In this document: piece by piece, positions 10,009 to 37,800 of the stretch
Layout: the number at the start of each line of letters is the position of its first letter
How positions within the stretch are numbered: the first letter of the stretch is position 1
Translations under genes and position numbers: made by a program
The notes under the pieces: generated by a model
Database searches by the model: none
What the model was told of the DNA's origin: nothing
The model's input: only the letters and a program-made list of their open reading frames with translations
Source of the DNA: a phage
DNA: 64,000 bases
Reading direction: 5' to 3' (one strand)
Assembly (NCBI GenBank): GCA_012690745.1
Contig: GCA_012690745.1_4086.1

Positions 10009-10029
10009 TAACTAAACGAGGAAATATAC

Positions 10030-11454: not shown

Positions 11455-11466
11455 GTACTAAATAAT

Positions 11467-11497: not shown

Positions 11498-11501
11498 AAG
11501 T

Positions 11502-11529
11502 GGGACAACTTATAAAAATATGATATAAT
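11502..11529 (+). promoter_or_regulatory. sigma70-like early promoter (GGGACA - 16 nt - TATAAT)
   Basis: gggacaACTTATAAAAATATGAtataat; same spacing and ATGATATAAT -10 context as P2. Confidence 0.5.
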
Positions 11530-11563
11530 AGTTAATGTACCAATATACATGGAGAGTATTAAA

Positions 11564-11809
11564 ATGGAACAAGAAAATAATCAAATTCAACTAACCCTTC
11601 TAGACCTAATCAATGCTGCAAAAATTATGGAAGCTGCTGTTGCACGAAACACCTTTAAAGTTGAAGAACTTGTTGAGGTTGCTCCAGTTGTATCTAAATT
11701 TGTTTCTTTTGCAAATGTAGCTCTTGAAGATATTAAAGCACAAGAAGATGCAGCTAAAGAAGAAGCTGAATCACAAGATAGTGAAACTCAAGAAGATAAA
11801 GGAGAATAA
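11564..11809 (+). CDS. small acidic hypothetical protein
   Basis: ORF track starts at 11549, but ATG 11564 is preceded by GGAGAG. Product is E/D-rich (EDAAKEEAESQDSETQEDKGE). Confidence 0.45.
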   Translation: MEQENNQIQLTLLDLINAAKIMEAAVARNTFKVEELVEVAPVVSKFVSFANVALEDIKAQEDAAKEEAESQDSETQEDKGE

Positions 11810-11811
11810 TT

Positions 11812-12468: not shown

Positions 12469-12471
12469 AAT

Positions 12472-13994: not shown

Positions 13995-14001
13995 ACGAAA
14001 A

Positions 14002-14028
14002 GGGAGAACTAATGTTCTCCCTTTTTTT
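14002..14028. terminator. bidirectional intrinsic terminator between convergent genes
   Basis: GGGAGAAC-taat-GTTCTCCC followed by TTTTTTT on plus; A/T run on the other side as well. Confidence 0.75.
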
Positions 14029-14029
14029 A

Positions 14030-15994
14030 TTATCTAATTGTTACCAATGTTCTTCCGTCGAAACGTACATCAGGAGTTGAAGGTATACTAAACACTACGT
14101 TAGTGCCGTTAAACGTAACGCTATCGACCTCAACACGAGTATAGACACCAGGACTAACCTGTTCCTGTATCTCTGCTGTGACGATGTTTGAGGCTGTTAC
14201 AGTAAGGGTGTAGTAGTTACCACTTAATACCCAAGATGAAATGGTAAAAGCATCGGTTCTCACTGAACCTGAACCAATCGGAACCCATTGACCTTGAACT
14301 TTTTGCATTGAAGTACGCTCGGTATTTGAGTATGCAATCATACCATCAACGCCAACAGAGTTATCAATAGTTGCTAGTACTGGTAATTGGATACCATATC
14401 TATTAAAACGTGTTCTTATAGTTCCATTATCATAGATACTTACATCAGCATAATTACCCATTGATAGTTTTAAATCAGAACTAACTAATTGGATTGTACT
14501 TTGATTAGTAGTACTTTCTAATGTAATTATACCATTAGCTAATAGATTTATATTTTTAAATTTATTAGTTGTTCCATTGAAATTAGTGTTTGCTGTAAAC
14601 GTACTAACTCCATTAACTGTAATTGTATCTGATGCAGCATCGCCTAATATGGTATTACCTTGAATGTTCAAATTACCACTAGCAGTGATATTACTAGCTG
14701 ATGTATCACCAGTCAATGTGCTTGTACCATCAACCACAATATTACCATGAAACGCACTTTCACCATTTTTAAATTCAACTTGTACTTTATTCATTGAACT
14801 AAATGAAATAATATTACTACTAGCACTTAGTCCAACATTAGTATTGGTTGCATTATCAAATCTTAGTACTGGGGTTGATGCTGGGGTTGAAGTTGTTTGG
14901 TATAATGTTAATGTTGAATTATTAATTCTAATACGTTCAGTTCCCGCAGTACTGAAACCAATTGCATCATCTGCTGGATGAAACATACCAGTATTAGCGT
15001 CTGACCATTTTGCAGGATCATTACCTGGGTTATTGGTTGGATCAAATGGATTGTTATTAAATGTCAATGCTGGTGCTGCTGCACTACCATAGACCACACC
15101 AAAACGCCCTGAGCCGCTTGTTCCATCATTATACATGGAATCACCAGTTCTACGTAAACACTCAATCACAACGTTATCTATGGATGTTTGAACGGTCCCT
15201 GCGTTTGTCCTAAATTGACGATGATTTGCAATCATTACAGTATTGTCATATAATACTGAAGCAGCGGAAATGCTTGTTCTTGACTGGCGTAGACGTATGT
15301 TTTTATCTTCAGTTATAATAATCCAATCACCATCTGATAGTGCGGTTTGGTTCATTGGAACACCTGAAGCAAATGGTTTGGTTAAGTCAGCATCTGTTGC
15401 TAAATTTTTAAGACCATCATGACCAGTACTAGGAATAGATGCAGGAATAATTCTAGCGAAAGCGTATGTTACTAGTTTAGCACCAGATATATTTGGATTA
15501 GAGTCAACATAATATAAAATTTCAATCCAATTACCTTGTCCAGTTGGATTTGTAGGTGTAAATGTAACAGGACTTGTTTGTGGATTATTTGCTTCATAAT
15601 GGGCTTGTGCGGCATCCATAATACCACGAACAACATAATAATCACCATTTAGTGATGCTGCTGGTGCTGGTAGTGGTGTTTGTGCTAAAGGTGGATCAAT
15701 ATCATCTGGGATAGGATTGTATGTACCAACAAACTGTAAACCACTAGTTACTGAATCTGGTAATTGGGAAGTAAGAAGTTTACCATTTGCATCTAAGTTT
15801 GCAAAGCGGCGATATGCCATAGTACCATCTTCAAAATCCAGAACACCTTCAAATGATTTCCATTCCTTATTGTATCTAATCATCCCTGATCTTATTACAT
15901 CAGCGGTTTCTTTTGATGGTGCTTTCGGTAACTCTAAAAAAGATTTACTATCAATAATTACACCACCATCACCTCTAATTCGATTTATACTCAT
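14030..15994 (-). CDS. tail fibre / receptor-binding protein
   Basis: 654 aa, Thr/Ser/Asn/Gly-rich beta-rich composition, N-terminal GMIRYN..W..FEG-type fibre motif, C-terminal variable region. Confidence 0.6.
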   Translation of the reverse strand: MSINRIRGDGGVIIDSKSFLELPKAPSKETADVIRSGMIRYNKEWKSFEGVLDFEDGTMAYRRFANLDANGKLLTSQLPDSVTSGLQFVGTYNPIPDDIDPPLAQTPLPAPAASLNGDYYVVRGIMDAAQAHYEANNPQTSPVTFTPTNPTGQGNWIEILYYVDSNPNISGAKLVTYAFARIIPASIPSTGHDGLKNLATDADLTKPFASGVPMNQTALSDGDWIIITEDKNIRLRQSRTSISAASVLYDNTVMIANHRQFRTNAGTVQTSIDNVVIECLRRTGDSMYNDGTSGSGRFGVVYGSAAAPALTFNNNPFDPTNNPGNDPAKWSDANTGMFHPADDAIGFSTAGTERIRINNSTLTLYQTTSTPASTPVLRFDNATNTNVGLSASSNIISFSSMNKVQVEFKNGESAFHGNIVVDGTSTLTGDTSASNITASGNLNIQGNTILGDAASDTITVNGVSTFTANTNFNGTTNKFKNINLLANGIITLESTTNQSTIQLVSSDLKLSMGNYADVSIYDNGTIRTRFNRYGIQLPVLATIDNSVGVDGMIAYSNTERTSMQKVQGQWVPIGSGSVRTDAFTISSWVLSGNYYTLTVTASNIVTAEIQEQVSPGVYTRVEVDSVTFNGTNVVFSIPSTPDVRFDGRTLVTIR

Positions 15995-16044
15995 TTAAAT
16001 ATTTCCTCAGAATAGATTTATATGATGTATTTATTTTAGTTAAA

Positions 16045-16078
16045 AGAAAAGGCCAAGCATAGGCTTGACCTTAAAAAA
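16045..16078 (-). terminator. intrinsic terminator (minus strand) after ORF 16079-16858
   Basis: Minus-strand AAGGTCAAGC-ctat-GCTTGGCCTT followed by TTCTTTT. Confidence 0.55.
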
Positions 16079-16858
16079 TTAACGTATACGTTCAGGAATA
16101 TCAACACCTTCATATACCCAAGTTGCAGCTTGTTGTGCCTTATAAATTGCATCAGGATCTAAATCATCAACTGCATCAATTGCTGCACACTGATTGTCAC
16201 ATTCTGTAAACAATTGCTCAATCATAGCAAAGGCTCCAGTGTATAGTTGTGTCATTTCAGTAGCAGATAATTTTACAATTGCGTCATCAAGAAAAATAGA
16301 AACACTTTCAGAACCTGAAGTGACTTGTGTATAGTAATTAAGAAGCATTTGACGACCAGACATATCAGTACTGTAACGATGACCATTGAACATATAACCA
16401 GAATTCATACGATTTGTACGTTCTGATATAGTTCTTGCTTTTAAATCAACTTTAACATCTGCTATTGGCATATCAATATAATGATATGTTTTAAGAACAG
16501 TTAGTGCTTTATATTCTTCGGTAGCGTCTTCTAAAAATTCAACAATAGGTTGATTTTCATCTTTTAATTTAATAAACTCCAACGGTTGTTCAATAGCATT
16601 AACATTTCCAACATTTTTATACACTAACCACCAAAAACCTTCTTCTTTTCTAACAGCATCATTAGGTTCTACTGGGGAACCATCTTTACTTGAAATACCA
16701 TAAAGAGTTCTAATATCACTATAAAGATAACGATAGGTTTGTGGATCTTCTGGTGTTGCACCAGGACGTTCTTTAAGTCCTTTTACACCAATTGGATTGG
16801 AAATAATGTTTCCCAATTCATAATTTTCTTTTGAATTTCCTTTCACATATGTGAACAT
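16079..16858 (-). CDS. hypothetical protein (possible fibre assembly/accessory protein by position)
   Basis: 259-aa ORF between the giant fibre gene and the 654-aa fibre gene; ATG confirmed at 16858. Confidence 0.45.
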   Translation of the reverse strand: MFTYVKGNSKENYELGNIISNPIGVKGLKERPGATPEDPQTYRYLYSDIRTLYGISSKDGSPVEPNDAVRKEEGFWWLVYKNVGNVNAIEQPLEFIKLKDENQPIVEFLEDATEEYKALTVLKTYHYIDMPIADVKVDLKARTISERTNRMNSGYMFNGHRYSTDMSGRQMLLNYYTQVTSGSESVSIFLDDAIVKLSATEMTQLYTGAFAMIEQLFTECDNQCAAIDAVDDLDPDAIYKAQQAATWVYEGVDIPERIR

Positions 16859-16922
16859 ATAACTACCTCACTTGTTATGATGGTGTCACCCAAAATGAGT
16901 GACACCTTTATTATTATAATTA

Positions 16923-19900
16923 TTAAGCAGTACGTTGTGCAATAAACATATCTGTTACTGGACTCACACCGTCATAAATGACTTGGTAGATAGTTACAGA
17001 GTTTGCAGTTTTGTTCAGTGTGCCATCAACAACCGCATAAGTACCATCAGTAGTAAAGTTTCTATTACCTGTTGCATCTTGTTTCACATAAATGTATACT
17101 GAAGATGCTTTACCACCACCGATTAGACCAGTGATTGGTGCTAGAGTGGTATCTTGATCTAGAGTGATAAAGTATACGTTGCTAGTACCGTCTGGGGTCC
17201 AAGTACCAGTTGGTGCGATAACAGAAGAAGTTACTTGATTAGGAATAACATCATATTTTTTAGTAGTTACTGTTGTAGTAGTTAGGTCAGCATTAGTAGT
17301 TGTTAATTGACCAGTTACAGTTACATCTTTATCAAATACTGCATTTTCTTTGAAAGAAGATGTTGCATTGACAGTTAATGTATCAGCAGCAGCGTCACCT
17401 AAAACAACACTACCATTTGCAGTCATTAAACCAGTAACAGTTAAAGTACCACCGATTGTTGCTGCTCCAGTAACAGATGCACTAGCAAGTGTTGCTGCAC
17501 CAGAAGTAGTAATGGTAGTTACTGAAGTTGCTGCTAGGGTTGCAGTACCTGTTGCAGAAATATCACCACCAACAGTTAGGTTACCAGAAGTAATTCCAAC
17601 GGTTCCAGTAATGTTAGCACCACTTGACATTGTTACTGCACCACCAAATGAACCAGTAGTAGTTACTTCAAGGGTGTTCCCTTTTAGTAGACCAGTTGCA
17701 GTAATACTTGTACCTGCGGTAATACTAGTACCAGCAGCAACACTGTTGGTTGCAGTTAATGATTTAACAGCCACGTCAGAGTTTGCTTGGTTTAGTGTTG
17801 CGTTAAGTAGACCAGTTACTGTAAAGTTACCGTTGTTAACTACGTTACCATTGATTGTTAAGTTGTTGTTTTGTGAACCAACATCACCAATAGTTGCTGA
17901 TTTGGAAATCAACTCTGCACCAGAAGTAATATTACCCGCTGCACTAATAGTGTCCGCCGCAACAACTGCATAAGGTTCAATTGTTTGACCACTAACGTCA
18001 ATATCAGCGTTGATACCACCATCTACACGCAAGGAGCCAGCAATGTAAGTATTAGGGAAAATCTGAACTGTCTCTGGTTGATCGCCAATTTTAGTACCGA
18101 TAATAACATCAGCACCAGTTTTAACTGCACCAGAGGTTGTTAGAGAACCTAAAGTTGTAGCACCAGTTACACCTAATGTACCACCAATTGTTGCGTTATT
18201 AGTAACTGCTAACGCAGCACCTTCACCATTAAGAGCGATTGATGGAGCAGATACTGCACCAGTTACGCCTAATGTGCCACCAATTGTTGCGTTGCCATCT
18301 GAATGTAGAGTTGTAGCTACAGAAAGACTGTTAGCAACTACATCAGTACTAGCTAAATCCAATGCACCTGGGGTTAATGTACCAGTAATGTTAACATTAT
18401 TACCAAAGGTCGCTGCACCAGTCACATCTAGTGTAGTACTAAATGTACCAGATGTTGCAGAGATTGCACCTGAATCTAGTGATCCAACAGTTGCTTTACC
18501 AGTTACACCTAAAGTTCCACCAACAGTTCCATTTGTGGTTACATCCAATGTACCAGTACTTAGTTCTTGTGCGGTTACCTTACCGGATGCAGTAACAGTT
18601 GAAGTGGAAACACCACCAGTTAGAGTACTAGCACCAGTAACACTTAATGTGGTTGCCGCAGTTACGCTATTCACACTAAGATCAGCACCGGATAAGTCCA
18701 AACCACCTTCAGGAACAAATACACCCTTAACAGTTAGTTTTTGTACTGTACTATCACCTGTTACATCCAATGTAGAAGCAGTTAAACCACCATTCATACT
18801 TGCTGCACCAGTAACACCTAGTGTAGTGGTTACAGTAGCACTATTAAGTGTTGAGCTACCAGAAATATTAGCACTAGAAGCAGTAATAGTTCCAGAATCA
18901 ACTTGTATACCACCAGCAACAACCTGAATTCCACCAGCATTAACTGTTAGTTTACCAGCAGTATTCAATGTATTTGAAACTGTTGTTGCACCAGTTAAAG
19001 TTGTAGTGCCAGTTACACCTAAGTTACCAGAAATAGATGGACTACCTGTAATGTTACCAGTAGTTAGTATCAAATCAGTACCTACGGTAGTGGAGCCAGT
19101 ACTTTCTAGTGTTACACCGACGATGTTTGCAGAACTTAGGTTAATAGTACCATCAACAGTTAAGTTACCTTGAACGGTTGCATCACCTAGAGAAGTTAAT
19201 GTCTTCACAGACACATCAGTTGTGCTAAGATCAATAACACCCGCAGTTAGTGTTCCAGATACTGCTAAATTACCAGTAATCGCGGTATTTTTAGTAATGG
19301 ATACATTTTCTGCCGCTGAAGTAATAGAACCAACAGTAAGTACACCACCAACAGTTGCGTTATTAGTTACATTTAGAGCAGTTCCAACACCAGATAGTGT
19401 TGCTGACCCACCAGTAATTGCACCTGAGATTGAAGCTGTTGCTGCTGAAACATCACCAGAAACTACTGCATTTGTTGCATTTAGAGCAGACACTGTAACT
19501 TCAGTACTTTGAACTTTAGGTAGAACGTTGATACCTTCTGCACTACTAACTGTAATAATACCAGTACTTGTTAGAGATTTAACAGATACATCAGCACCAC
19601 TTAAATCAACTGTACCAGAAACAACAAGATCTCCACCAATATTTGCTCCAGCGGTAGTAGTAATGGATTTTGCACTTACATCAGTTGTGCTCAAATCAAT
19701 TGCACCTGGTGTTACTGTACCAGAAACTGTTAGGTCACCAGTAATAGATGTATTATTGGAAATAGATACACCATCAACGTTACTAATTGTTGGGGTTTCT
19801 ACAGAAACTGCTTTAACTTTACCTGAAGAAGTTACGTCAGCTACGGTAGATGCACCAGTAACATTCAAATTAGTAATATTTGCAGTTGTTGAACCAAGGG

Positions 19901-22448
19901 TTGCAATAGTTGCATCAGTACTTTGAAGTTTAGGTAGAACACTACTAATTGTGGATTCATTACTAACAATTGCACCAGTACTAGTTAAAGATTTGACAGT
20001 AACATCAGCCGTAGTAAGATCTACTGTACCATTAACAGTTAGGTTACCACCAATAGTTGCACCAGCAGTAGTAGTAATGGATTTAGCATTAACATCAGTT
20101 GTTGCTAGATCGATAGAGCCTGGAATAACTGCACCAGTAACAGTTAGGTCACCAGTTACATTTGTATTATTGGAAATAGTGACACCACTTGCATTTGAAA
20201 TGGTTGGGGTAACCAACGATGCAGTTGTAGTTTCACCAGTTACAGTTAAAGTTGACCCAACTAGAACAGATGAGCTTGAGTAAATTGTACCCAAATTAGC
20301 AGATCCGGTAACAGTTATATCATCAGCATTAACAGTAGTTGCCGTTATGGTAGTACTATTAAGTACTGGAAGTACGTTAGCATTAACAAGATCATTACTT
20401 TTAACAATACCAGAAGTAGTTAATGATTTAACATTAAGGTCGGCTGCTGATAAATCAAAAGAGCCTTGAACTACTAAATCACCACCAATAGTTGCACCAG
20501 CAGTAGTAGTGATTGATTTAGCATTAATATCGGTAGTGCTCAAGTCTAGAGAACCAACAGTTAAGCTACCAGTAATATCAACATTTTCTGTAAAGTTAGT
20601 ATTACCACTAATAGTTGGTGCAGTCAGAGTTGTTGCACTAATATTAGTACCGTTAATTGTTTGCCCACTTACAGTTCCACTCGCAGTGATAGTAGGGGCC
20701 GTTACTTCAGTAGATGCACTAATTGTTGGTGCAGATACAGAAGTTGTACCAGTAATAGAACCAGAACTTACTGAACCAGCGGATAATGCACCAGAAAGAG
20801 TTGCAGTTGTACCAGCAATATCACCAGTAACAGTTAGTTTAGCACCCACGGTAGTGTTACCAGTACTTTCAAGTGTTGCACCTTTAATATTTGCTGCCGC
20901 GACAACAGAATTAGGTGTTAGATCCTGCCCACTAACATCAACAGTTAGTCCAGTTACTGTTCCAGTAAATTCAACATCATTAAGAATTGCTTTACCACCA
21001 ACTTGTAGGAATGGTGTACCTGGAGCTTGTGTTTCGTTACCAGTAATAGTTAGGTAATCTAGTTTGTTTAGACCGTTACCAGTAATACCATAAGTGGAAA
21101 GAGAAGCGTTACCGAAAGTTGCTGTTTTAAGAACGTTCAATGTAGAAGGAGAAACGACTTCTGATTGAACTTCGTTAGGTAGAATAACTGTTGGGCGTTG
21201 ACCTGGTGCAGTATATCCAAAACCTAGTTTCACTGCCGCATCTTGACTATTTTGACCTAAGCTGATAGCTTTAAAGGATGCAGTACTGTTATAACCAGTA
21301 ATATTAGAACCAAGAGTAACACCACCAACTAATGAAGTTACACCAGTAACGTTCAAAGATACTGCATTAATATCGTCTAGTTGGAACGTTCCACCAAGAA
21401 GACCAGAAACATTAATGTTATTAAAATTAGCAGTACCAGTACTTTCGATATTTGGAATAGTTGCAGTTCCGGTTACTTCAAAGTCAGCAACTTTAGTTTT
21501 TCCTTTTTGAACTTCTAATAGTGGTGTGTCTGGTGATTGTGTATTGTTACCAGAAACTGTTAGATAATCTAATTTGTTTAGACCATTACCAGTAATACCA
21601 TAAGAAGATAATGACGCATTACCAAAAGAAGCAGAGGTCAATACTGTCAAGTTTGCAGGTGACATTAGCTCGGACTGAATTTCGTTTTGTAGAATAACAG
21701 TTGGGCGTTTACCAGGAGCAGTGTAAGGGAAGCTTAATCTGAAGGTTTGTGATTCAGAGTTAGAACCAATACGAATGTCTTTAAAAGTAGCAGTACTGTT
21801 AATACCAGTTACGTTAGCACCGAAAGTTACTGCACCTTGTTGGTTAGATGCACCAGTAACGTTCAATGTTACTGCATTTAAGTCAGATAGATTAAACTCA
21901 CCACCAAGTGTACCACTAATTGTCACATCGTTAAATGTAGCAGTACCAGTACTACTAATATCTGTTGTACTTACATTAGTAATTTCTGCGGTATTAGCAG
22001 TAATTTTATCAAATGCAGCAGTAGTCCCAACATCAGCAGTAATATTACCTTTAAATGCTGTTGTTTCAGCAACTTCTAAGTTTTTAACTTTAGTTGCTTG
22101 TAGAGTGGTTGTACCAGCAGTTTGTGTAAAATCAGAACCAACTGATACAGTACCGTTAAAGGTAGCGTTTGAATTAATTGTTGCTGTATCAGACCCGACA
22201 ACTGCACTACCGATTGTAGTATTACCCTCAACACCAAGACCACCAGAAAGTGTTGCTTTGCCACCTACATCTAAAGTAGATGTAATGTTGGCAGTTGATG
22301 ATTCAATGGCAGTAAAAGTTGCATTTGCAAAAGTTACAGTACCATTTACAGTTAGGTTATTGTTGAAAACAGCATTTCCTTTGACTAAAAGATCCTTACC
22401 AACCGTACCAGCACCAGTAATATCTAAGTCAGTTTTTATTGAGTACAT
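16923..22448 (-). CDS. giant repeat-containing tail fibre / adhesin-like protein (1841 aa)
   Basis: Continuous ORF, Thr/Gly/Ser/Val-rich. Two ~170-aa tandem units (aa ~152-495) and about three and a half ~140-aa tandem units (aa ~620-1110). Low stop-codon content generates spurious antisense ORFs. Confidence 0.75.
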   Translation of the reverse strand: MYSIKTDLDITGAGTVGKDLLVKGNAVFNNNLTVNGTVTFANATFTAIESSTANITSTLDVGGKATLSGGLGVEGNTTIGSAVVGSDTATINSNATFNGTVSVGSDFTQTAGTTTLQATKVKNLEVAETTAFKGNITADVGTTAAFDKITANTAEITNVSTTDISSTGTATFNDVTISGTLGGEFNLSDLNAVTLNVTGASNQQGAVTFGANVTGINSTATFKDIRIGSNSESQTFRLSFPYTAPGKRPTVILQNEIQSELMSPANLTVLTSASFGNASLSSYGITGNGLNKLDYLTVSGNNTQSPDTPLLEVQKGKTKVADFEVTGTATIPNIESTGTANFNNINVSGLLGGTFQLDDINAVSLNVTGVTSLVGGVTLGSNITGYNSTASFKAISLGQNSQDAAVKLGFGYTAPGQRPTVILPNEVQSEVVSPSTLNVLKTATFGNASLSTYGITGNGLNKLDYLTITGNETQAPGTPFLQVGGKAILNDVEFTGTVTGLTVDVSGQDLTPNSVVAAANIKGATLESTGNTTVGAKLTVTGDIAGTTATLSGALSAGSVSSGSITGTTSVSAPTISASTEVTAPTITASGTVSGQTINGTNISATTLTAPTISGNTNFTENVDITGSLTVGSLDLSTTDINAKSITTTAGATIGGDLVVQGSFDLSAADLNVKSLTTSGIVKSNDLVNANVLPVLNSTTITATTVNADDITVTGSANLGTIYSSSSVLVGSTLTVTGETTTASLVTPTISNASGVTISNNTNVTGDLTVTGAVIPGSIDLATTDVNAKSITTTAGATIGGNLTVNGTVDLTTADVTVKSLTSTGAIVSNESTISSVLPKLQSTDATIATLGSTTANITNLNVTGASTVADVTSSGKVKAVSVETPTISNVDGVSISNNTSITGDLTVSGTVTPGAIDLSTTDVSAKSITTTAGANIGGDLVVSGTVDLSGADVSVKSLTSTGIITVSSAEGINVLPKVQSTEVTVSALNATNAVVSGDVSAATASISGAITGGSATLSGVGTALNVTNNATVGGVLTVGSITSAAENVSITKNTAITGNLAVSGTLTAGVIDLSTTDVSVKTLTSLGDATVQGNLTVDGTINLSSANIVGVTLESTGSTTVGTDLILTTGNITGSPSISGNLGVTGTTTLTGATTVSNTLNTAGKLTVNAGGIQVVAGGIQVDSGTITASSANISGSSTLNSATVTTTLGVTGAASMNGGLTASTLDVTGDSTVQKLTVKGVFVPEGGLDLSGADLSVNSVTAATTLSVTGASTLTGGVSTSTVTASGKVTAQELSTGTLDVTTNGTVGGTLGVTGKATVGSLDSGAISATSGTFSTTLDVTGAATFGNNVNITGTLTPGALDLASTDVVANSLSVATTLHSDGNATIGGTLGVTGAVSAPSIALNGEGAALAVTNNATIGGTLGVTGATTLGSLTTSGAVKTGADVIIGTKIGDQPETVQIFPNTYIAGSLRVDGGINADIDVSGQTIEPYAVVAADTISAAGNITSGAELISKSATIGDVGSQNNNLTINGNVVNNGNFTVTGLLNATLNQANSDVAVKSLTATNSVAAGTSITAGTSITATGLLKGNTLEVTTTGSFGGAVTMSSGANITGTVGITSGNLTVGGDISATGTATLAATSVTTITTSGAATLASASVTGAATIGGTLTVTGLMTANGSVVLGDAAADTLTVNATSSFKENAVFDKDVTVTGQLTTTNADLTTTTVTTKKYDVIPNQVTSSVIAPTGTWTPDGTSNVYFITLDQDTTLAPITGLIGGGKASSVYIYVKQDATGNRNFTTDGTYAVVDGTLNKTANSVTIYQVIYDGVSPVTDMFIAQRTA
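19121..20591 (-). repeat. intragenic tandem repeats (about 3.5 units of ~420 bp) in the giant fibre gene
   Basis: Repeated protein module G(S/A)(L/I)DL.TTD(I/V)(N/S)AKSITTTAGA(T/N)IGG.L.V.G..DL..AD..VKSLT(T/S)(S/T)G; also visible as near-identical antisense ORFs 19528-19926 and 19951-20283. Confidence 0.8.
20966..21995 (-). repeat. intragenic tandem duplication (2 units of ~510 bp) in the giant fibre gene
   Basis: Protein units ...GGEFNLSDLNAVTLNVTGAS...FPYTAPGKRPTVILQNEIQSE...SSYGITGNGLNKLDYLTVSGN... and ...GGTFQLDDINAVSLNVTGVT...GYTAPGQRPTVILPNEVQSE...STYGITGNGLNKLDYLTITGN... Confidence 0.8.
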
Positions 22449-22544
22449 TTATACCCTCCATTATAACCTTGTTAATATGTATATATTTAGTTTTATTATG
22501 CTGTTATCCAACAATTAATATGTTATTTGACAAAAGCAAATATA

Positions 22545-22587
22545 ATAAAAACCAGACTTATTTAGAACAAGTCTGGTTAATTTTTTT
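22545..22587 (-). terminator. intrinsic terminator (minus strand) after ORF 22586-23482
   Basis: AACCAGACTT...AAGTCTGGTT stem with T-runs on both strands. Confidence 0.55.
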
Positions 22588-23482
22588 ACTTACCAGAGAT
22601 GACAATCTTACCACTGAAAGAAATATCAGAAGTGAAGATTACATCACCAGTACTACTAATTTGTGTATCAGTCACTACCAATTCAAATGGAGATGACGAA
22701 ACACTCCCAGGTGTTTTATTTGCATAAATTGAAATATACAAATTATCTGGTGTTTGATTGTGTTCAGATGCAGGAATAGTGATTGTAAAATCACCATCAC
22801 TAGAAACCCAATCTGCTTGGTTTACCAATTTACTATAAGGTACTGTCATTGTTGTTGCTCCTATAATGTTTACTTTAACACTTGCATAATCTGTGATTTG
22901 ACCAATCACATCAATTGTTATATCCCCAATACCACTAACTGTTACTGTGGTTTGGAATACTGATTCCAATGCAACATTACCTGGGTCACCTTGTAGTTGG
23001 ATCATAATATCAGAACCTCTACCATGAACTGATTCTGGTAGTGTGTAAGTATAATGATCAGTAGTATCTGGCACTAATGTAAATGCAGAAACAGGAACTA
23101 TTTCAGTAGTTACATATGAGCTATCAGTCCCAGGTGAGCTACCTTTAAATGGTTTCCAAATACCAAGATCTTTAATATAAATTTGAAGAACATTAGTACT
23201 ATCAACCAAAAAGTAAACGTCACCATCTAGACCGATCGAATCGGATGGTGCTGTTGTTCCACGTAAGATACCAGAACTACCACCACCACTGTGTGCGTTT
23301 AAATATCCCAATGTAACCAAGTGTGTGTTTGCAGTTGGTTCACCTGCTGAAATTGGAAGAAGTTGTGTTCCTGAGTAGTTTTGAATTTGCACAACACTAC
23401 CATTTGTGGTAATCTGTGCACCATTCTTCCCAAGAATGAAGGACTTCTTCATGGTTCCTTCTAAATTAGAAAAAACTGCCAT
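22586..23482 (-). CDS. tail fibre/spike protein with N-terminal anchor shared with ORF 23499-25640
   Basis: 298 aa; N-terminus MAVFSNLEGTMKKSFILGKNGAQ closely matches MAVFSNFEGTMQPKFILGKKGAS of the upstream gene. Confidence 0.55.
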   Translation of the reverse strand: MAVFSNLEGTMKKSFILGKNGAQITTNGSVVQIQNYSGTQLLPISAGEPTANTHLVTLGYLNAHSGGGSSGILRGTTAPSDSIGLDGDVYFLVDSTNVLQIYIKDLGIWKPFKGSSPGTDSSYVTTEIVPVSAFTLVPDTTDHYTYTLPESVHGRGSDIMIQLQGDPGNVALESVFQTTVTVSGIGDITIDVIGQITDYASVKVNIIGATTMTVPYSKLVNQADWVSSDGDFTITIPASEHNQTPDNLYISIYANKTPGSVSSSPFELVVTDTQISSTGDVIFTSDISFSGKIVISGK

Positions 23483-23498
23483 TTTAATATAATCTCCT

Positions 23499-25640
23499 TT
23501 ATGGTAGGGTTATGTAAGTTACGGGTTGGGCAGCTTTTAATGCTGCACCAGCGGCAGTTGCTGTTATGATAGGATCTGCAATATCAATTCTATATACGTT
23601 GTTTACAACATACACTGCACGAGTTATATACGTTCTCAAATCACCACCATTTTCACCAGCACCGGATATAATGATCTCAGTACCAGCAGCTTTTGCATAT
23701 TGGTTTTCACCCCATGACACACCCAATGCTTCTATGTATGTTTGTCCTGCTACCGTTTGTCTAATTGTGTCATATTTTCCGAAAAAAGAACCACCAACAG
23801 TTACAATATATTTTCCACCCGATTGTTTATGAATAATCGTGCCTTCAGAGAAATAGCGTCCCCCAGGAAAAGTATCGTATGGAATATAATATTGCTCAAC
23901 TACAGGTATCAGTACTGGGCCACGGTGTCCTGTACCATCGATTGCAGTTGTAACTTTAAAGTTATTAGATGATTGGTCTATTCTGTCTACATACATTTTA
24001 GAAAAACTATATTTTGAAACATTACAATCATCTTGAACAACACAGTTAGTCCAATTAGTATAAGTATATTTAGAGCGAGTATAGATACCACCACCTTCGC
24101 CTTCGGTAGAGAGGTGTTGACCAATTACATCTAATTCTTTAGTTCTAATATCACTAAATTTAGATGATGATGGCAAACCACGCCAAAGGATTTTAGAACA
24201 GGTGATATTGCTCAATTCTGTATTATTTAACCAATTATCAGAACCGGAAGTATAAACAAGTATAGAAGACTCTGGAATATAGAGATTAGAAATTTTAAAG
24301 TTTCTAGGTGGTCCAGCAAAACGACCAGAAGTTACACCCCAGTTTATTGAAACCATTCTATTTGTGATAGAAGGATCATTAAGCAAATGACCAGTCAACC
24401 CATCAATAATGAATTCTTTCGAACCATAAGTTATAACACCAGCAGTGGTTAATCCAGTACCAACAGAAACTAAAGATGATGGATAAACTTCATTATTAAG
24501 TATTTTAAAGTCCATTCCTAATTCAACGTGGATACATTGTCTAACATTATATAGTCTGTTATTTTTAATAACAAAGTTTCTGACATATTGTGTATCTGGT
24601 GCATCTAAACCATAAGGACCAGAACCAGCAACGCCAATACCAATGCCCCAGTTTGAAAGTGGGATTGGAGCGTTAGAACCATCAACGTTTTCAATTACGT
24701 TTCCTTCAATCACAAAACCATCAGGATAATGTGAGTTAATTACGTTTAGTTCAATTGCATCACCATATATATCATGTATGTGGTTATATGAATATCTACC
24801 AACCTTCATTTTCTCACCAGTACCTTGTTGAAGAACACCATACTTACATTGGGTCATTTCATTAAAGCAAAAATCTATTGTTCCTGGTTGTGTCATACCT
24901 TGCATTAAAAATGCAGCAGTACTTGTGATGTTTATAAATTTATTAAAATAAAACTTACCATCGCCACCGAAGAATTTTAAATAACATCCAGTAAGTGTTG
25001 CAAATTGTATTTGGGAATTAATAACGGATACCATAGTACCACCATTACCAGTAATAGTTCCCCCAAACCAAGTTACATCTTCCAGGTATATTGCAGTTTT
25101 GATACGGTAATTACCACCAGCCTGAATTTGGATTTTATTTTCTTTAGCATAAGCAGCACATAAATTTACAGCAGCAGTGTCATCAGTTTCGCCATCACCT
25201 TTAGCACCAAATTCTTCTGGTGTTATATAAAACTGGGCCTGTTGAACTGTACCTCCAGTAATAAGTCCGATGAAATCGCCACCATTTTTACTGGATATAA
25301 CTTTTTTATTAATGTATAATGATTTTACCCATGTACCATTACTTTTTGCAAAAATATCAACAATACCATCTTCATCAATTTGAAAATACGTATTATTGTT
25401 CTTTCCTACATCATCGGTAGGGGGTACAACACCAAATAATGCATTAGGGTTATCTTCAAGATATTTTACGTTAACTGCTGAATTAGGGTCAGATGAAGTT
25501 CCTACCTTCAGTGGTAGGAACTGTTCTCCTAGATAATCTTTTATAGAAACTGAATCATTGATAAAATTTATTGAAGCACCTTTTTTCCCCAATATGAATT
25601 TGGGCTGCATAGTTCCTTCAAAATTAGAAAATACTGCCAT
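23499..25640 (-). CDS. tail spike / receptor-binding protein (shared N-terminal anchor, large variable body)
   Basis: 713 aa; conserved N-terminal ~25 aa shared with 22586-23482; Gly/Asn/Thr-rich body. Any enzymatic (depolymerase) role is speculative. Confidence 0.55.
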   Translation of the reverse strand: MAVFSNFEGTMQPKFILGKKGASINFINDSVSIKDYLGEQFLPLKVGTSSDPNSAVNVKYLEDNPNALFGVVPPTDDVGKNNNTYFQIDEDGIVDIFAKSNGTWVKSLYINKKVISSKNGGDFIGLITGGTVQQAQFYITPEEFGAKGDGETDDTAAVNLCAAYAKENKIQIQAGGNYRIKTAIYLEDVTWFGGTITGNGGTMVSVINSQIQFATLTGCYLKFFGGDGKFYFNKFINITSTAAFLMQGMTQPGTIDFCFNEMTQCKYGVLQQGTGEKMKVGRYSYNHIHDIYGDAIELNVINSHYPDGFVIEGNVIENVDGSNAPIPLSNWGIGIGVAGSGPYGLDAPDTQYVRNFVIKNNRLYNVRQCIHVELGMDFKILNNEVYPSSLVSVGTGLTTAGVITYGSKEFIIDGLTGHLLNDPSITNRMVSINWGVTSGRFAGPPRNFKISNLYIPESSILVYTSGSDNWLNNTELSNITCSKILWRGLPSSSKFSDIRTKELDVIGQHLSTEGEGGGIYTRSKYTYTNWTNCVVQDDCNVSKYSFSKMYVDRIDQSSNNFKVTTAIDGTGHRGPVLIPVVEQYYIPYDTFPGGRYFSEGTIIHKQSGGKYIVTVGGSFFGKYDTIRQTVAGQTYIEALGVSWGENQYAKAAGTEIIISGAGENGGDLRTYITRAVYVVNNVYRIDIADPIITATAAGAALKAAQPVTYITLP

Positions 25641-25654
25641 TATGACATCCTCCC

Positions 25655-26782
25655 TTAAATATTATCTTGAATCGGTTGGATAGGAGCTTGCCATGAAAGA
25701 GTACAAATAATTTCCATTTTTCCATAAGGACTGTTGTTAACAGAATCGTTGAATACACATGAAATAATTTCATCAACATCGGATGCTGCATGATTAGTTT
25801 CATTAACAATAAAACGCATCTGACGATTGATATCAAAGTAGGAAGTTGGTGCAATTACAGTCCCACCAATATCTTCTTGTGCTTCACCACCAAAACGTAC
25901 AAACATATCAGTTACAGGAAGAGAATAAGGTTGTATAACGTTTACATCAATATTAGAAACTACATATCCAGCAGGACACGTACCAATAACTAATAGTGCG
26001 TTAGTCCATGAGCTATCTATTGTATTTCTAATAGAAATTGTATCTTTACCTGGTGCACCTGGTTCGCCTTGTATACCTTGAATACCTTGCTGACCTTCTT
26101 TACCACGGAATAGAATACCCTCACTCCACTCTTTTGCAGGAGGGGTAGTTGTAGTTACTTCATCAACATAATATAGTTTTCCATCAGTGTTGTTATAAAA
26201 ACAATAATCAACTGGAAGATTTTCAATACTTGGAAATTGATCACCACTGCTATCAATATGGAAACGACCACGCGGACCTTGTTCACCACGGAAAGGTATA
26301 CCATCACTCCAAGTAGCAGTTACACTTTGATAGAAATAAAGTTTACCATCTTGAGTATTATAAAATGTATAGTTATCAAAAAGACCAGTTGTTGGGAAAG
26401 TAGTTCCAGCACTATCAATGTGGAACGGCTTACCCGCTTCACCCGTATCACCTTTACCAAACTCAACACTAATCCATGTACTTGTCGGATCTTGTGCATC
26501 ATTTGATTTAAAGTATAGAGTACTGGTATTGTTAGCCAAGCTTAAGTAGCACCACCCAAGTGGTTCACCAACTTTAAATTGTTCGGAAGGAATTTCAAAA
26601 CCAATCTCATTAGGATAAAAGTTTTTACCATTCTCGCCATTCTGTCCTACAACAAGACCTAAATCTTGAATTGTGTTATCTGCATAGGTTACAATTAAAT
26701 GCCCAGCACCATTAATAACTAGACTTTTGATGCCGGAGTTATTACATGAACCACTGGACCCATTGTTAAATGAAATTGTCAT
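25655..26782 (-). CDS. collagen-like repeat-containing tail fibre protein
   Basis: Gly-X-Y runs (GKEGQQGIQGIQGEPGAPGKD, GEQGPRGR, GQNGENGKN) interspersed with a repeated module FHIDS.G..FP...Y.FYN.DGKLY. ORF track starts at a TTG (26818); first ATG with RBS AAGGGAAA is at 26782. Confidence 0.65.
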   Translation of the reverse strand: MTISFNNGSSGSCNNSGIKSLVINGAGHLIVTYADNTIQDLGLVVGQNGENGKNFYPNEIGFEIPSEQFKVGEPLGWCYLSLANNTSTLYFKSNDAQDPTSTWISVEFGKGDTGEAGKPFHIDSAGTTFPTTGLFDNYTFYNTQDGKLYFYQSVTATWSDGIPFRGEQGPRGRFHIDSSGDQFPSIENLPVDYCFYNNTDGKLYYVDEVTTTTPPAKEWSEGILFRGKEGQQGIQGIQGEPGAPGKDTISIRNTIDSSWTNALLVIGTCPAGYVVSNIDVNVIQPYSLPVTDMFVRFGGEAQEDIGGTVIAPTSYFDINRQMRFIVNETNHAASDVDEIISCVFNDSVNNSPYGKMEIICTLSWQAPIQPIQDNI

Positions 26783-26892
26783 AATATTTCCCTTGTATGA
26801 GTTAATGTCATATACCAATATTTATCAGTACAAAATACATTTCGTTATCATTAATAAATAAATGAAAGTTCACTACTAAAAGGGCTTAAACA

Positions 26893-27390
26893 ATGGCATT
26901 AAGATCAAAAGACTTTCTCTTCAGAAGAAAAACAAAAGATGGTTCATGGCAAGATTTTCCTGAATCTGATAGCTGGTATCCAGCTAACTTGGATTATCAC
27001 TGGAATGAACAAACGTTACCACTCGCAAGTGGTGGCTACTATGGATGTACTACAGGTTTACATACTATTTCATTTACACTACGTAATTTTATTGGTAGAA
27101 TTTATGTATTAGCTACATTAGCTAGTAATCCTACTGATGATGATTGGTTTCCAATTAAATTCACTGAAAGTTGTAATTATTATCTTGAATTTACTGATAT
27201 GGTTATTTTAAATCCAAATGGTGGGGATTTAATTAGACAACAAGGAACTACCGGAACATTTGCTGAAACAGTAACTGGTAATTTTACTTACCTTAAAGTT
27301 GGTATAGACCGTGATTATATTAGTAAGTATCCATCAGATGTCCAAAAAAGTTTAGCTGGGAAGTTAGAACAAATTTTAATTAACTACTAA
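26893..27390 (+). CDS. hypothetical protein
   Basis: 165-aa ORF diverging from the fibre cluster. Confidence 0.45.
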   Translation: MALRSKDFLFRRKTKDGSWQDFPESDSWYPANLDYHWNEQTLPLASGGYYGCTTGLHTISFTLRNFIGRIYVLATLASNPTDDDWFPIKFTESCNYYLEFTDMVILNPNGGDLIRQQGTTGTFAETVTGNFTYLKVGIDRDYISKYPSDVQKSLAGKLEQILINY

Positions 27391-27399
27391 GGATTAGAA

Positions 27400-28008
27400 A
27401 TGAAATTAGAAACAGAACAACCAAAACTATTTGTTAAAGGTCATGTCCTAATTACTGACGTTACTGATCCATCAAATCAAAAAATCGTTTTAGATAAATC
27501 TAACGCTATTCACCCTGAAAATATGAGTACTGCCATTGCTAATGCGTTAGCATATAATCAAGACAGTACTGGTATTCCTATTGGTTCTATTAGCGAGATG
27601 CGTTTTGGTAATGGTGGTACAGTAGTTTTAAGTACTGGTCGTGTTACTTATAAAAAACCACGTGTTACATCATTTGGTGGTTTGTATTCACAAACATATT
27701 TGAAAAAAATCAACCCACGAATTACGGCAGGTATTGATTCACAATACAATAATATTACAACTGTACATATACCAGGACAGTCCTATACTGATATTGTATG
27801 TATTTGTACTCTAGGGTTAGGTGAACCATCCGACCAAGGTGTAAGCTCAGGGACAAGCATGGATGGAACTTATGTGTTTGATGAATTGGGATTATACACG
27901 GATGGCGATAGTGGTATTCCTTTAACCCATATCATTTTTCACCCAGTTGAGAAAAGTGCAAACCGTGTCTTACAAATTAAATACACAGTTCGTGTACAAT
28001 TACAATAA
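27400..28008 (+). CDS. hypothetical protein (possible virion component)
   Basis: 202-aa ORF, RBS AAGGA, tightly spaced with neighbours. Confidence 0.45.
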   Translation: MKLETEQPKLFVKGHVLITDVTDPSNQKIVLDKSNAIHPENMSTAIANALAYNQDSTGIPIGSISEMRFGNGGTVVLSTGRVTYKKPRVTSFGGLYSQTYLKKINPRITAGIDSQYNNITTVHIPGQSYTDIVCICTLGLGEPSDQGVSSGTSMDGTYVFDELGLYTDGDSGIPLTHIIFHPVEKSANRVLQIKYTVRVQLQ

Positions 28009-28020
28009 TGGGGACATATA

Positions 28021-29121
28021 ATGAGTGTTAATTATACAATTTATAGAAGTAATGGTAGTGTTTATGCTACCATTCCAAATAATGTTATTTTAGGACCAAA
28101 CCAGCCCGGAAGTAACCCAGTTCCGTTAAATTTAGTTGGTAGAAATAAAGTAAGTTACGGTCAAGCATGGAATGAAAACTTTTTACATTTAGTTGAAAAT
28201 TTCAGTTCAGCATCTGCACCACGTGGCAACGTCAATGGTCAACTTTGGTATAGAAACACTGGTAGTACTGGTGAGTTATTGATATCATTAGTTGATAATG
28301 CTAGACAACCTGCTGATATGGTAAGTGAAGCTGAGTGGGCGTCTATCCCTATGATTACTGTTTTTAACACAGTGCCTGATGGTGAAAATAGTGTTATGGG
28401 TCGTATGGTATTAACTAGTAACGGTGATTCTCTTCGTGTGTTAATGAAAAACAAAGAATGGCGTGAAATTCAAACATCTAGACCAGAAAACAAAGAGTAT
28501 TCATCATTATTAGATATTAACTATGATAATGGTAAAAAATATATAGAGTTCACACAAAGTAATAGTACTAAACCAATTGCGTATTTTAACTTAGGTGGTA
28601 CTTCACAAGTAGATACAAATAACTGGACAACATTAACTAATGGTACTGGTGTCTTTGAATTTGGTAGCAACTATTTCTATGAATTAAAAATTATGATTAG
28701 AGAAGTAAATGATTCTTCTGGTGAGATAGTTTCTCTTCCATACAATTCAAAAACCTTTTTTATAAAAGGGCAATTTTATGTAGATAATCAAGGAACTTTT
28801 GTTCCTGGTTCGGTGGGGGCAAGTCAAATGCCAGACCCACGTAGGATTACACAATTAGAATCCATAAAAGATGTTATTACCAGTAGTCGCCCAAACTGGG
28901 ACGTAAATATTGTTATTAATGGTGTAGATCCATCTATCCCAAATCCTAATGGAACATCTAAAGCTGATTATGAAAATTGGGTTATCAATTCTCTAAACTC
29001 AAATAAAAATTTAGGTTTTCGAGTTGATGGTAGCATTAGTAATCTAACTGCTGGTGAATCCGTTAAACTACAAGCATCCGTGTTGTTAAATATTACAGGT
29101 ATTCCGATTATTGGAGTATAA
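28021..29121 (+). CDS. hypothetical protein (possible baseplate/fibre-associated)
   Basis: 366-aa ORF, Asn/Ser/Gly-rich, followed by a strong terminator. Confidence 0.45.
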   Translation: MSVNYTIYRSNGSVYATIPNNVILGPNQPGSNPVPLNLVGRNKVSYGQAWNENFLHLVENFSSASAPRGNVNGQLWYRNTGSTGELLISLVDNARQPADMVSEAEWASIPMITVFNTVPDGENSVMGRMVLTSNGDSLRVLMKNKEWREIQTSRPENKEYSSLLDINYDNGKKYIEFTQSNSTKPIAYFNLGGTSQVDTNNWTTLTNGTGVFEFGSNYFYELKIMIREVNDSSGEIVSLPYNSKTFFIKGQFYVDNQGTFVPGSVGASQMPDPRRITQLESIKDVITSSRPNWDVNIVINGVDPSIPNPNGTSKADYENWVINSLNSNKNLGFRVDGSISNLTAGESVKLQASVLLNITGIPIIGV

Positions 29122-34897: not shown

Positions 34898-37800
34898 TTA
34901 CTTAACTAATAATATATTTTTAATATCATTACCACTAACTTGTAGACTATCAGTGTATACTGAAAGATCTATAGTGTAACTATTTTGTGTGTAACGTTTT
35001 AACATATCATAATTACCTAAATTAATTCCATTGAAAGAATATGTGGTATTAAGTTTAAAATCATGTTCTGCACTATACATTACACCACGGAGTAAATTAT
35101 TTGCATTTCTAACTTCAACTTTTTCATATCCAATCGATATAATATCATTCATGTTCGCGGCTGAACCGGATAAAACATTATTTCTAATACTATAAGGACT
35201 TATTGATTTAGGTTGAGAAACATAGGTTGTATTTTCTTCACTAATGGTTGTGATGTTAGTAACAGTACCACCAACAACACCGATATACATACCGTCAACC
35301 ATTGGGAATCCATAAACCCATATCCCTTCATTATTTCTAAACGGTTGAATAACACTTGAATCATATTCGATAACGTTGATTTCTAAACTATCAGTCATTT
35401 TAGTTCTTGCCAATTCACTAAGAACTCCCGCACCCGTAATTGGTAAGTTATAACCGTTATCGATAGTAATTCCATCAACATCAAATATTTCATTGGAGAT
35501 TATCCAAACGTCAACGTCATCTGGTGTTATTCCGTCATTGTACTTACCACCATTTAAAGTAATATCGTAGAAAACATCATAATTAATTACATCAATGGTG
35601 TAATTTCTATTTTGTTCATACAATTTAATACCATTCTTGACAAATTCAGGGTCAGCAAATGTTCTAACACGAACAATGTTCAATGCTAGAGGCTGTACTG
35701 GCTCATTTTGTTGTGCAAGAGTGATGTTATCATAACGGAGAACTGCACCAGTACTCTCATCAATCAATTCAATCGTTTCCTTACCTGTATTTCTTACAGT
35801 GAATAGGATCGGAGTTGTATTGTTTTTGATGTTAGATACACGCAAGATTGTTTCCCATGTGTGATTTTGATATCTCACAAAATCTTCACCATCAGGAGTG
35901 AAAATCATCACCTTATCACCATCAGATAGGTCATTGTCAACTATTTCTGCTTCAGTTAAGCTATTAATAGATCTCACACGATAGAAATATTTTTCATCAA
36001 ACTTCGATGTTGTTTTATTAATATCATTTTCAATCTTAGCATATGAAGGAATACTTACAATTGCTTCTGTATGTTTATATGGATTGATAATTGCCATACC
36101 TTCAGTTTGATATCTGCTGTTATCACGTAATTGTACAAGAGATACATTGTCAAACCCATATCCATCAACTGTAAATCTAATTTGTCCAACATCACGCCCA
36201 GAAGGGTTTATGTCAGATATATCCACAATATAAGGATCAACTTCATCATCTTTAACTTCCCATTTTATTGAAGAAGTTTGAGATTCCAATGCTAGGTTAT
36301 CAAATGCATTCATATCATTGAAGTACTTAGCTTCAGTAATACTATCAAGTATATATTGATAATCAGAATACATTGGATTATTTTGATCTAGTGGTAAATC
36401 ATCAAGATTTATTTCAGCTAGTTCAACCATTTCACCATTTGTGATAAAATAATCTTCCATGAAATCATCAATACTTTGTTCATCAGGTATACTTTGATAT
36501 ACACCGTTAACATTTAAGTAAACATATTTTCGTGGAATCATTGTAATTGCATAGATATCAATTGGGGTCTTACTAAGAATCTCTTCAGCTTTTTCGTACT
36601 TATCAGTAGCGTCTTTGTCGAATAACCCTCTCATACCTGCTAATACGTGAATAGCATCAGTATAGAAACGGGTATCACCACCTACTTCATCATAACGATA
36701 AACATATACACCATACTCAACTTCAAGTTTAACTTTTACTTCATAGTCTGATGCGTCAGGATTTTTATCTTTAATTAATGAAATGTATTTTTGATACAAT
36801 TCACTGCTTATTTCAAAATATCCATAGTTATAATCATTACTAGAAGAAAAGCCTAATGGAAGTCTAGTACTAGGATTGTCATTATAAGTAAGTCCACTAA
36901 ATCCACATCCAACTTCATCGTGAATTTTCTCATCACTTATATCTTTATAAAGTTTCAAACGGTTTGCCAATGTGTTATACTGAACATATTGTCTAAGGTC
37001 AGTAAACATATCGTTATGCGTTGATTCTTTATAAACACGTTCCAATGTAGCAGTGAATTCATCAGTTGCTTCTAAATCTTCCGCATGGTCTTTATACCAC
37101 TGGTTAACGCCATATGCTGTTCCTAGTGTTACATCCAATTCTGGATAGTAGATTTGCATTTGATAAGCAATAAGAAGATCGAAAGTTTCTTCACTATATT
37201 CTGGGAAAGAATATATATAACGTTGTAATTCATAGTTACTAACAGCATCCTTTTCATTGGATTGATATTTGTTATTAACACTTACTAATTCATTTATGCT
37301 TGCCAAATCTTCATTTGGTTTACACTGAATATTATCATAATGCATAATAATATCAATTTCTTGGAATCTTCTATTTGGTGTAACGAAATCACTTGGTAGT
37401 GAACCTACCTGTTCCCATTTTTGGGTAATTTCATTAAATTGAGCGTACTCATAATCCCAAATATCTTTTTCAGTTTTGATCCAAGAACCGTCAACGAAAA
37501 TATATCCATTAGGATCTAAATCATTACATAGACCTTTTATTAAATCATCATCAGATGTCTTTTGCTCTATTTGTGAACGAATTTTAGTTCTATAAGGTTT
37601 AACTTCTTCAAAATATTCAACAATTTGATTAATCAAATTATCGTTTGAATAGTTTTGAACTAATGATTGTTCCAAACCAACAATATAGATATATGATGTT
37701 TTAAATACCCAATCCACAACACTTTGTTCAACATGTACATATTTGACCATATCAAAAACAATTTCGCTTTGATGTAAATCGAAAGAATTTTTGAGTAAAG

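Follow-up and report, generated by a model that had tools for sequence, protein, structure and literature searches.

The window analysed here is a 64,000-nucleotide stretch of phage DNA (contig GCA_012690745.1_4086.1 of assembly GCA_012690745.1), and this study concerns a cluster of three minus-strand genes lying between its positions 22586 and 26818. The original prediction, made from the sequence without database searches, had described two of them as modular receptor-binding proteins with a common N-terminal anchor and the third as a collagen-like fibre. All three open reading frames (ORFs) were confirmed on the minus strand (22586-23482, 23499-25640 and 25655-26818), with the start of the third revised to 26782. 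The encoded proteins of 298, 713 and 375 amino acids (aa) are referred to below by their lengths. The features of the locus are the following.

25655-26782, minus strand: gene for the 375-aa "tail protein" (121Q gp574, phAPEC6 gp253, RaK2 ORF062), with the start set from the ribosome-binding site and homologues.
23499-25640, minus strand: gene for the 713-aa predicted colanidase, taken as the ORF.
25326-25640, minus strand: N-terminal domain of the 713-aa protein, residues 1 to ~105, from BLASTP and profile search.
23499-25355, minus strand: predicted colanidase module, residues 96-713 (neck, catalytic body and C-terminal part), from homology to PDB, Pfam and PHROG entries.
22586-23482, minus strand: gene for the 298-aa virion protein (121Q gp572, GAP32_221, CBB_227), from the ORF and homologues.
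22550-22578, minus strand: terminator-like hairpin with a 13-bp stem and a following T run, directly 3' of the 298-aa gene, from a consensus scan only.

The three genes are co-oriented with intergenic gaps of 14 and 16 bp and are followed by the hairpin at 22578-22550, beneath which the record of phage G17 also annotates a terminator. On account of the common orientation, the short gaps and the hairpin, we therefore treated them as one three-gene unit that is closed ahead of the gene for a 1841-aa tail fibre. A sigma-70 promoter scan of the region performed no better than on shuffled sequence, and tRNA and tandem-repeat searches of the region gave no relevant match. In a nucleotide comparison with phage records, positions 22500-26900 were 100% identical to Escherichia phage SHEFM2K and 98.8-99.9% identical in phAPEC6, SP27, 121Q, PBECO4, G17, Sharanji and others. 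Judged from its sequence, the source phage is an Asteriusvirus, that is, a 121Q/PBECO4-type coliphage and RaK2-like jumbo myovirus. Asteriusvirus genomes are ~350 kb in size and fall within the RaK2-like group, and the gene order at the locus is that of 121Q genes 569-582.

The 298- and 713-aa proteins were identical at 18 of their first 25 residues, and their genes at 30 of the first 33 coding nucleotides. A near-identical N-terminus of ~25 aa had been predicted; the sharing is real, while its extent is that of a two-part domain of ~105 aa and not of a 25-aa tag. The statement that the two proteins diverge completely afterwards was wrong, as BLASTP between the two aligned residues 1-109 with 1-104 (38% identity, E value 1e-19), with nothing significant beyond. 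The two N-termini are paralogous. This N-domain was present in exactly these two ORFs and absent from every other ORF of the window. It was further resolved with a profile made of eleven sequences, with which 1.84 billion representative proteins were screened, and the search divided it in two. The first part, positions 1-67, is an N-terminal module specific to the lineage, and the second, positions 65-110, is a single copy of a widespread fibre repeat of ~45 aa.

The two parts have very different distributions, and this bears on the suggestion that the N-termini are alike merely through a generic fibre repeat or through composition, without any specific shared domain. Positions 65-110 do behave in that way: hundreds of proteins that have nothing else in common carry the repeat, with up to 15 copies each and frequently in alternation with collagen triplets (as in P0149), and a hidden Markov model (HMM) of the repeat built from unrelated proteins matched residues 64-109 of the 713-aa protein with an E value of 7e-8. 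Positions 1-67, however, were found solely at the extreme N-terminus, in proteins of 274-1366 aa. Among cultured phages (50,697 records) this module was confined to the RaK2-like jumbo phages apart from one weak match in Salicola phage SCTP-2. Moreover, the motif MA(V/I)FSN.EGTM...LGK.G is invariant or nearly so across the N-domain family. The BLASTP, tblastn and profile results thus effectively refute the generic-repeat explanation, which we regard as extremely improbable.

The 1-67 module is reused in front of unrelated C-terminal domains. In metagenomic proteins it precedes a Beta_helix domain (P0172), a pectate-lyase-like domain with Peptidase_S74 (P0162), or BNR/sortilin propellers with CBM5/12 (P0180, P0219 and P0239), in line with the predicted interchange of modules behind a common N-terminal piece. 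The genes for P0162 and P0172, whose products differ in their C-termini, are separated by 6 kb on a single metagenomic contig of 120 kb. RaK2 has the N-domain by itself: its ORF061 is intact and, at 115 aa, contains nothing else, which shows that the N-domain is an autonomous unit. The 1-67 module had no family in the Pfam library searched. The family PF27114 "Phage_tail_beta" is on record for two metagenomic proteins that carry the N-domain and for none of the window proteins.

The metagenomic contig L007 (Logan SRR18476386, 119,912 bp) carries a five-gene cluster at positions 10001-20688. Its outer two proteins (780 and 705 aa) have the common MAIFS... anchor plus ~100 further residues in common, and the inner three (902, 199 and 919 aa) share another N-terminal motif, MSKKI.G.L.V / MAYNVKSDLDV. 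The arrangement resembles another multi-fibre system, one that uses two families of anchor.

Beyond the N-domain, the 713-aa protein corresponds to a known enzyme. A phmmer search of the PDB matched query residues 96-712 to residues 11-623 of chain 6E0V_A (6E0V/6E0W, phi92 gp150) with an E value of 3.8e-235, and BLASTP against full-length phi92 gp150 (804 aa) gave 57% identity over 619 aa, covering gp150 residues 189-801. The first 188 residues of gp150 are unrelated to the first ~95 of the 713-aa protein. Furthermore, the protein belongs to PHROG 6117 "colanic acid degradation" (E value 2e-263), has a precomputed Pfam assignment to PF27800 WcaM, and is 99.9% identical to a PBECO4 protein. The Pfam family Pect-lyase_RHGA_epim scored 24.3 bits on it, below the cut-off of 27. 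The prediction of a depolymerase tailspike was thereby supported for this protein, and the fold of the colanidase body can be predicted from homology to the solved structure 6E0V. For the activity we rely on published work: phi92 gp150 reportedly cleaves the beta-1,4 Glc-Fuc linkage of colanic acid by hydrolysis (Xu et al. 2025, as cited in PMC13450770), and PBECO4 gp547 is a published colanic-acid-degrading enzyme (Kim et al. 2015, as cited in PMC10059673).

On these alignments, the 713-aa protein can be described as a chimera, with the N-domain occupying residues 1 to ~105 and a predicted colanidase module of the phi92 gp150/WcaM type running from ~96-108 to 713. The same module stands behind unrelated N-termini in other phages, with 57% identity in Justusliebigvirus, ~33% in Phapecoctavirus-type phages, ~31% in Skarpretter-type siphoviruses and 28% in GAP32_128. 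The last of these is a distant colanidase of GAP32 itself (JN882285, 3683-5704), which lies in an unrelated non-structural locus between hypothetical genes and groES and has no MAVFSN-type N-domain.

Annotation of the colanidase gene is inconsistent among phage records (MK817115, OQ708376, LT603033 and OR545507). It is named "MutT/NUDIX hydrolase family protein" in CRJP21, "colanic acid biosynthesis protein" in slurp01 and Sharanji, and "hypothetical" elsewhere. The colanidase module is homologous to the host protein WcaM, and the name "colanic acid biosynthesis protein" presumably arose because of this homology. The record of phAPEC6 has no coding sequence (CDS) for the colanidase and also lacks the 298-, 259- and 654-aa genes.

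In the 298-aa protein the N-domain (residues 1 to ~112) is followed by two predicted beta-sandwich domains at ~120-210 and 211-298 in the AlphaFold2 (AF2) model. This protein is no beta-helix, and neither of the two modelled domains, which make up its C-terminal half, gave a significant structural match. Among 73 full-length orthologues, the two N-domain parts were best conserved, with mean identities of 67% and 63% vs 45-50% for the rest of the protein. The N-domain of the 298-aa protein is 60% identical to RaK2 ORF061 over 112 aa, and its copy is thus the orthologous one. The 298-aa protein is best explained as the ancestral bearer of the N-domain, to which two beta-sandwich domains are joined.

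The third gene of the unit had been listed as 387 aa from a TTG at 26818 (25655-26818). Its true start is almost certainly the ATG at 26782, because an AAGGGA ribosome-binding site lies 8 nt upstream, the homologues all begin with MTISF (61 of 61 aligned) and three records, those of SHEFM2K, 121Q and phAPEC6, annotate the shorter, 375-aa gene. The 375-aa protein comprises an N-terminal region (residues 1-44), three modules, a Gly-X-Y run at 227-247 and a C-terminal jelly-roll domain at 249-375. The modules, of 55-65 aa, are arranged in tandem at residues 45-110, 110-165 and 165-226 (domain E values of 1e-19 to 1e-23 each with the module profile), so that the FHIDS...FYN.DGKLY module taken to be duplicated is in fact present in three copies. 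Each is led by (Gly-X-Y)3, and (Gly-X-Y)7 precedes the C-terminal domain.

The predicted collagen-like triplets are accordingly real and conserved, but they form four short runs of 3, 3, 3 and 7 triplets, starting at residues 46, 111, 166 and 227 in the 375-aa numbering, and no long fibre. Triplet glycines were conserved in 63-100% of 62 homologues, and in at least 89% at 14 of the 16 positions. The Pfam Collagen family (PF01391) scored 15.9 bits, below its cut-off of 27.2, with a longest run of 7 triplets. Since the glycines are conserved yet the score is below threshold, the segments are collagen-like and the protein is not a member of the collagen family by the Pfam criterion.

The AF2 model of the 375-aa protein had a mean predicted local distance difference test (pLDDT) score of 82.3 and showed the C-terminal domain as a jelly roll. 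A Foldseek search with this domain returned trimeric phage cement proteins and jelly-roll capsid proteins, including 7dou and 7dn2 with template modelling scores, normalised to the target, of 0.63 and 0.58; these correspond to the trimeric cement/decoration proteins KHP30/KHP40. The domain also resembles Ena spore-appendage subunits. A profile search of the PDB with the 375-aa family gave no significant solved relative. By analogy with collagen-like proteins the 375-aa protein is probably a trimer. Proteins of C1q/TNF-like architecture and BclA of Bacillus are collagen-like trimers with a jelly-roll head. The 375-aa protein is like them in that (Gly-X-Y)7 stands directly before its C-terminal jelly roll, and unlike them in that its collagen runs, of 3-7 triplets, are very short and have three beta modules of ~50 aa between them. 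It is best explained as an accessory fibre that is conserved, contains short collagen-like segments and carries a jelly-roll head.

Residues 135-203 of the 375-aa family, within the modules, gave weak and non-significant profile matches to monocot mannose-binding lectins (4h3o, E value 0.04) and to WW domains (E values 0.4-0.9), which hint at a small three-stranded beta unit. The modules and the N-domain fibre repeat (66-116) have the pattern G..P...Y...Y...W in common. Homology between the two was considered and found unsupported, with hhalign giving a P value of 0.029 and a probability of 1.7% and HMM searches in both directions giving E values of 2.2-3.6.

The distribution of the N-domain across phages was obtained with tblastn against the 50,697 phage records. 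All E. coli/Salmonella records of the Asteriusvirus type carried it twice per genome. It occurred once per genome in RaK2, K64-1, GAP32, CBB, the relatives infecting Erwinia, Yersinia, Serratia and Xanthomonas, and further relatives infecting Salmonella. In GAP32, CBB and RaK2 the gene for the 375-aa-type tail protein is followed directly by the 298-aa-type gene, with nothing between them. Given a single N-domain copy and no intervening gene in these relatives, the colanidase gene must have been inserted in the coliphage branch only. The N-domain of the colanidase is nevertheless as distant from that of its neighbour (38% identity) as from the orthologues in other genera (33-40%). With such equal distances a duplication in situ is not demonstrated, and the whole chimera could have come from another RaK2-like phage.

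RaK2 (NC_019526, 12001-14045) differs from the window (14030-23482) in a further respect, as it has neither the 1841-aa fibre gene nor the 259-aa gene at this locus. Its ORF060 is homologous to only the ends of the 654-aa protein, with 51% identity over residues 1-340 and 35% over the last ~130. In RaK2 the missing fibre and the shortened N-domain protein may be connected.

Downstream of the hairpin, two further features on the same strand encode other virion proteins.

16923-22448, minus strand: gene for the 1841-aa tail fibre (121Q gp571 "long tail fiber proximal subunit", phAPEC6 gp256, CBB_226), from PHROG 4549 "tail fiber protein" (E value 9e-227).
14030-16858, minus strand: genes for the 259-aa (DUF4376) and 654-aa virion proteins (121Q gp570 and gp569; CBB_225 and CBB_224), from Pfam and CBB homologues.

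The 259-aa protein scored 34.5 bits with Pfam DUF4376 (cut-off 25). Published mass spectrometry (MS) of CBB virions detected CBB_224 to CBB_228, which are the orthologues of the 654-, 259-, 1841-, 298- and 375-aa proteins, respectively; coverage was 68.5% for the 259-aa orthologue (CBB_225) and 47.8% for the 654-aa orthologue (CBB_224). The expectation that products of this locus are virion proteins thus held for the orthologues of these five. In phAPEC6 virions gp253, the 375-aa protein, was represented by 14 peptides with 65.6% coverage, and gp256, the 1841-aa fibre, was also detected. The 375-aa protein is an abundant virion component in phAPEC6 and is present in CBB as well (CBB_228).

Both the 298- and the 375-aa proteins are conserved in phages of many host genera, and the latter is 70% identical to RaK2 ORF062. 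So high a conservation of the 375-aa protein among phages of different host genera points to a structural or adaptor function and away from a determinant of host range. Both proteins thus resemble conserved fibres, structural or accessory, more than exchangeable determinants of host range.

Taking these results together, we consider it probable that the cluster is a late minus-strand unit encoding three tail-appendage proteins, in which the 713-aa one is a chimeric colanidase tailspike that shares its neighbour's N-domain and is mounted with it on the virion. The coliphage lineage would have mounted a portable colanidase on an N-domain already used by a resident short fibre. Through the N-domain they share, both proteins (298 and 713 aa) would be seated at tail or baseplate sites of one type, and the virion would thus carry a conserved short fibre together with an enzyme cutting the colanic acid capsule made by stressed E. 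coli. Stripping of colanic acid could then let the phage reach its primary receptor on mucoid cells. That the N-domain is a docking element and the colanidase virion-bound is what we infer; the position of the gene in the operon and the shared N-domain argue for a virion location of the enzyme.

Several observations weigh against this interpretation. A profile search of the PDB with the N-domain found no relative among solved structures. Its AF2 monomer model was poor, with pLDDT values of 39-63 for residues 1-20 and 45-56 for residues 41-70. The PHROGs category of the colanidase family is "moron, auxiliary metabolic gene and host takeover" and not "tail". Finally, the phAPEC6 virion list contains gp253 and gp256 but neither the colanidase nor the 298-aa protein encoded between them. 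This last absence is ambiguous because both CDSs are missing from the GenBank record and were perhaps never in the search database.

The PHROGs category and the phAPEC6 list are also what would be expected if the colanidase were a soluble enzyme, freed at lysis and helping progeny to spread through mucoid lawns and biofilm. The N-domain would in that case be no more than an element for trimerisation or folding that came along with the gene. The 121Q record is consistent with this too, as it labels genes 572, 574 and 575 "structural protein" and gene 573 just "colanic acid-degrading protein". However, the gene lies between two virion-protein genes in one operon, across gaps of 14 and 16 bp, and its N-domain is common to a protein whose orthologue is found in CBB virions. 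In addition, the 1-67 module heads other tailspike-type proteins, the phi92 homologue is annotated and discussed as a tailspike/fibre candidate, and the phAPEC6 absence is uninformative with the CDS missing from the record. We therefore consider a soluble enzyme unlikely.

Another explanation concerns how the N-domain would be attached. Instead of binding a common baseplate site, it could mediate binding among the operon products, with the 298- and 713-aa proteins branching off the 375-aa protein or the 1841-aa fibre, as in RaK2, phiKp24 and CBA120. The 375-aa gene adjoins an N-domain gene in every RaK2-like genome examined, even in RaK2, where the 115-aa N-domain lies beside ORF062. The 375-aa protein is also unusually conserved, as expected of an adaptor, and the related Alcyoneusvirus is known to have branched fibres made of several proteins (PMC10253068). 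The 375-aa protein, as the constant neighbour, is a candidate partner of the N-domain. Outside the RaK2 group, however, no window protein except the N-domain itself matched the metagenomic contigs L007 and L008, and within the 22 kb surrounding the two N-domain genes of L007 neither the 375-aa protein nor any other window protein had a homologue. The RaK2 adsorption-complex study makes no mention of ORF061 or ORF062. On balance, a branched arrangement is possible but the less probable of the two forms of attachment.

The architecture of the 713-aa protein agrees with what is known of related systems. Phi92 gp150 (PDB 6E0V/6E0W; Justusliebigvirus) and PBECO4 gp547 belong to the same enzyme family, PHROG and Pfam family WcaM as the 713-aa protein, with phi92 gp150 having a 188-residue N-terminus of the rV5/phi92 type in place of the ~105-aa RaK2-type N-domain. 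The modular receptor-binding proteins of Klebsiella phages and coliphages (Latka et al. 2019, PMC6872550; Latka et al. 2021, PMC8262889; DepoCatalog, PMC13385381) combine a conserved N-terminal anchor with exchangeable depolymerase modules. The 713-aa protein matches their plan, in which a structural N-terminal part comes first, a beta-helix enzyme (predicted in the 713-aa protein) occupies the centre and a C-terminal part closes the chain. The rule drawn from them for depolymerases is a lineage-specific N-terminus combined with a horizontally exchanged enzyme body (PMC6872550, PMC8262889, PMC13385381). The depolymerase cluster of RaK2 (gp526-534) does not use the N-domain, because RaK2 has one N-domain match only.

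The enzyme family, the PBECO4 protein and the modular architecture of such proteins are already known, and the 713-aa protein is an ordinary though clean example; the general understanding of modular phage receptor-binding proteins is unchanged by it. The analysis does fix the annotation of a gene that has variously been named "colanic acid biosynthesis protein", "MutT/NUDIX hydrolase" or "hypothetical", or left unannotated. It also defines the fusion point at ~96-108, which is where other depolymerases could be mounted on Asteriusvirus or from which the colanidase could be moved elsewhere, and it reveals that uncultivated jumbo phages join the N-terminal module to further modules for catalysis or binding. 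No description of the 1-67 module or of the pairing of genes 572 and 573 was found in the papers examined. More speculatively, the ~110-aa N-domain may be an undescribed docking family of RaK2-like and uncultivated jumbo phages. It would be partnered with the 375-aa protein as a plug-in adaptor for colanidases, beta-helices and BNR propellers, with the bare 115-aa plug filling the socket in RaK2; we put this forward tentatively and think it rather doubtful.

Some further observations concern the surroundings of the unit and the related phages. On the plus strand at 17350-22518, opposite the 1841-aa fibre gene, there are seven antisense ORFs with lengths of 96-247 aa, for example one of 247 aa at 21775-22518 that is rich in V/L/P/A/T. 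They are almost certainly artefacts and not genes, because the fibre gene has a repetitive Gly/Ser/Thr/Ala/Asn codon usage. A giant ORF of 3333 aa on the minus strand (34898-44899) corresponds to 121Q gp582 and to phAPEC6 gp245 (381.9 kDa), which was detected with 17 peptides in phAPEC6 virions; the gene called at 34898-44899, of 3323 aa, has no Pfam match on record. "Hairy" whiskers have been described on the tail and capsid of phAPEC6 and CBB. SHEFM2K has been characterised as a flagellotropic phage (Alsharif et al. 2025, as cited in PMC11895373). The fibre operon is immediately preceded by a divergent trio of genes on the plus strand (26893-29121), encoding proteins of 165, 202 and 366 aa whose 121Q counterparts carry a structural annotation. 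Two of its members are represented among the virion proteins of phAPEC6, as gp250c and gp251c, and of CBB, as CBB_230 and CBB_231. The trio is kept in RaK2, GAP32 and CBB, and its products are possible partners of the fibre proteins.

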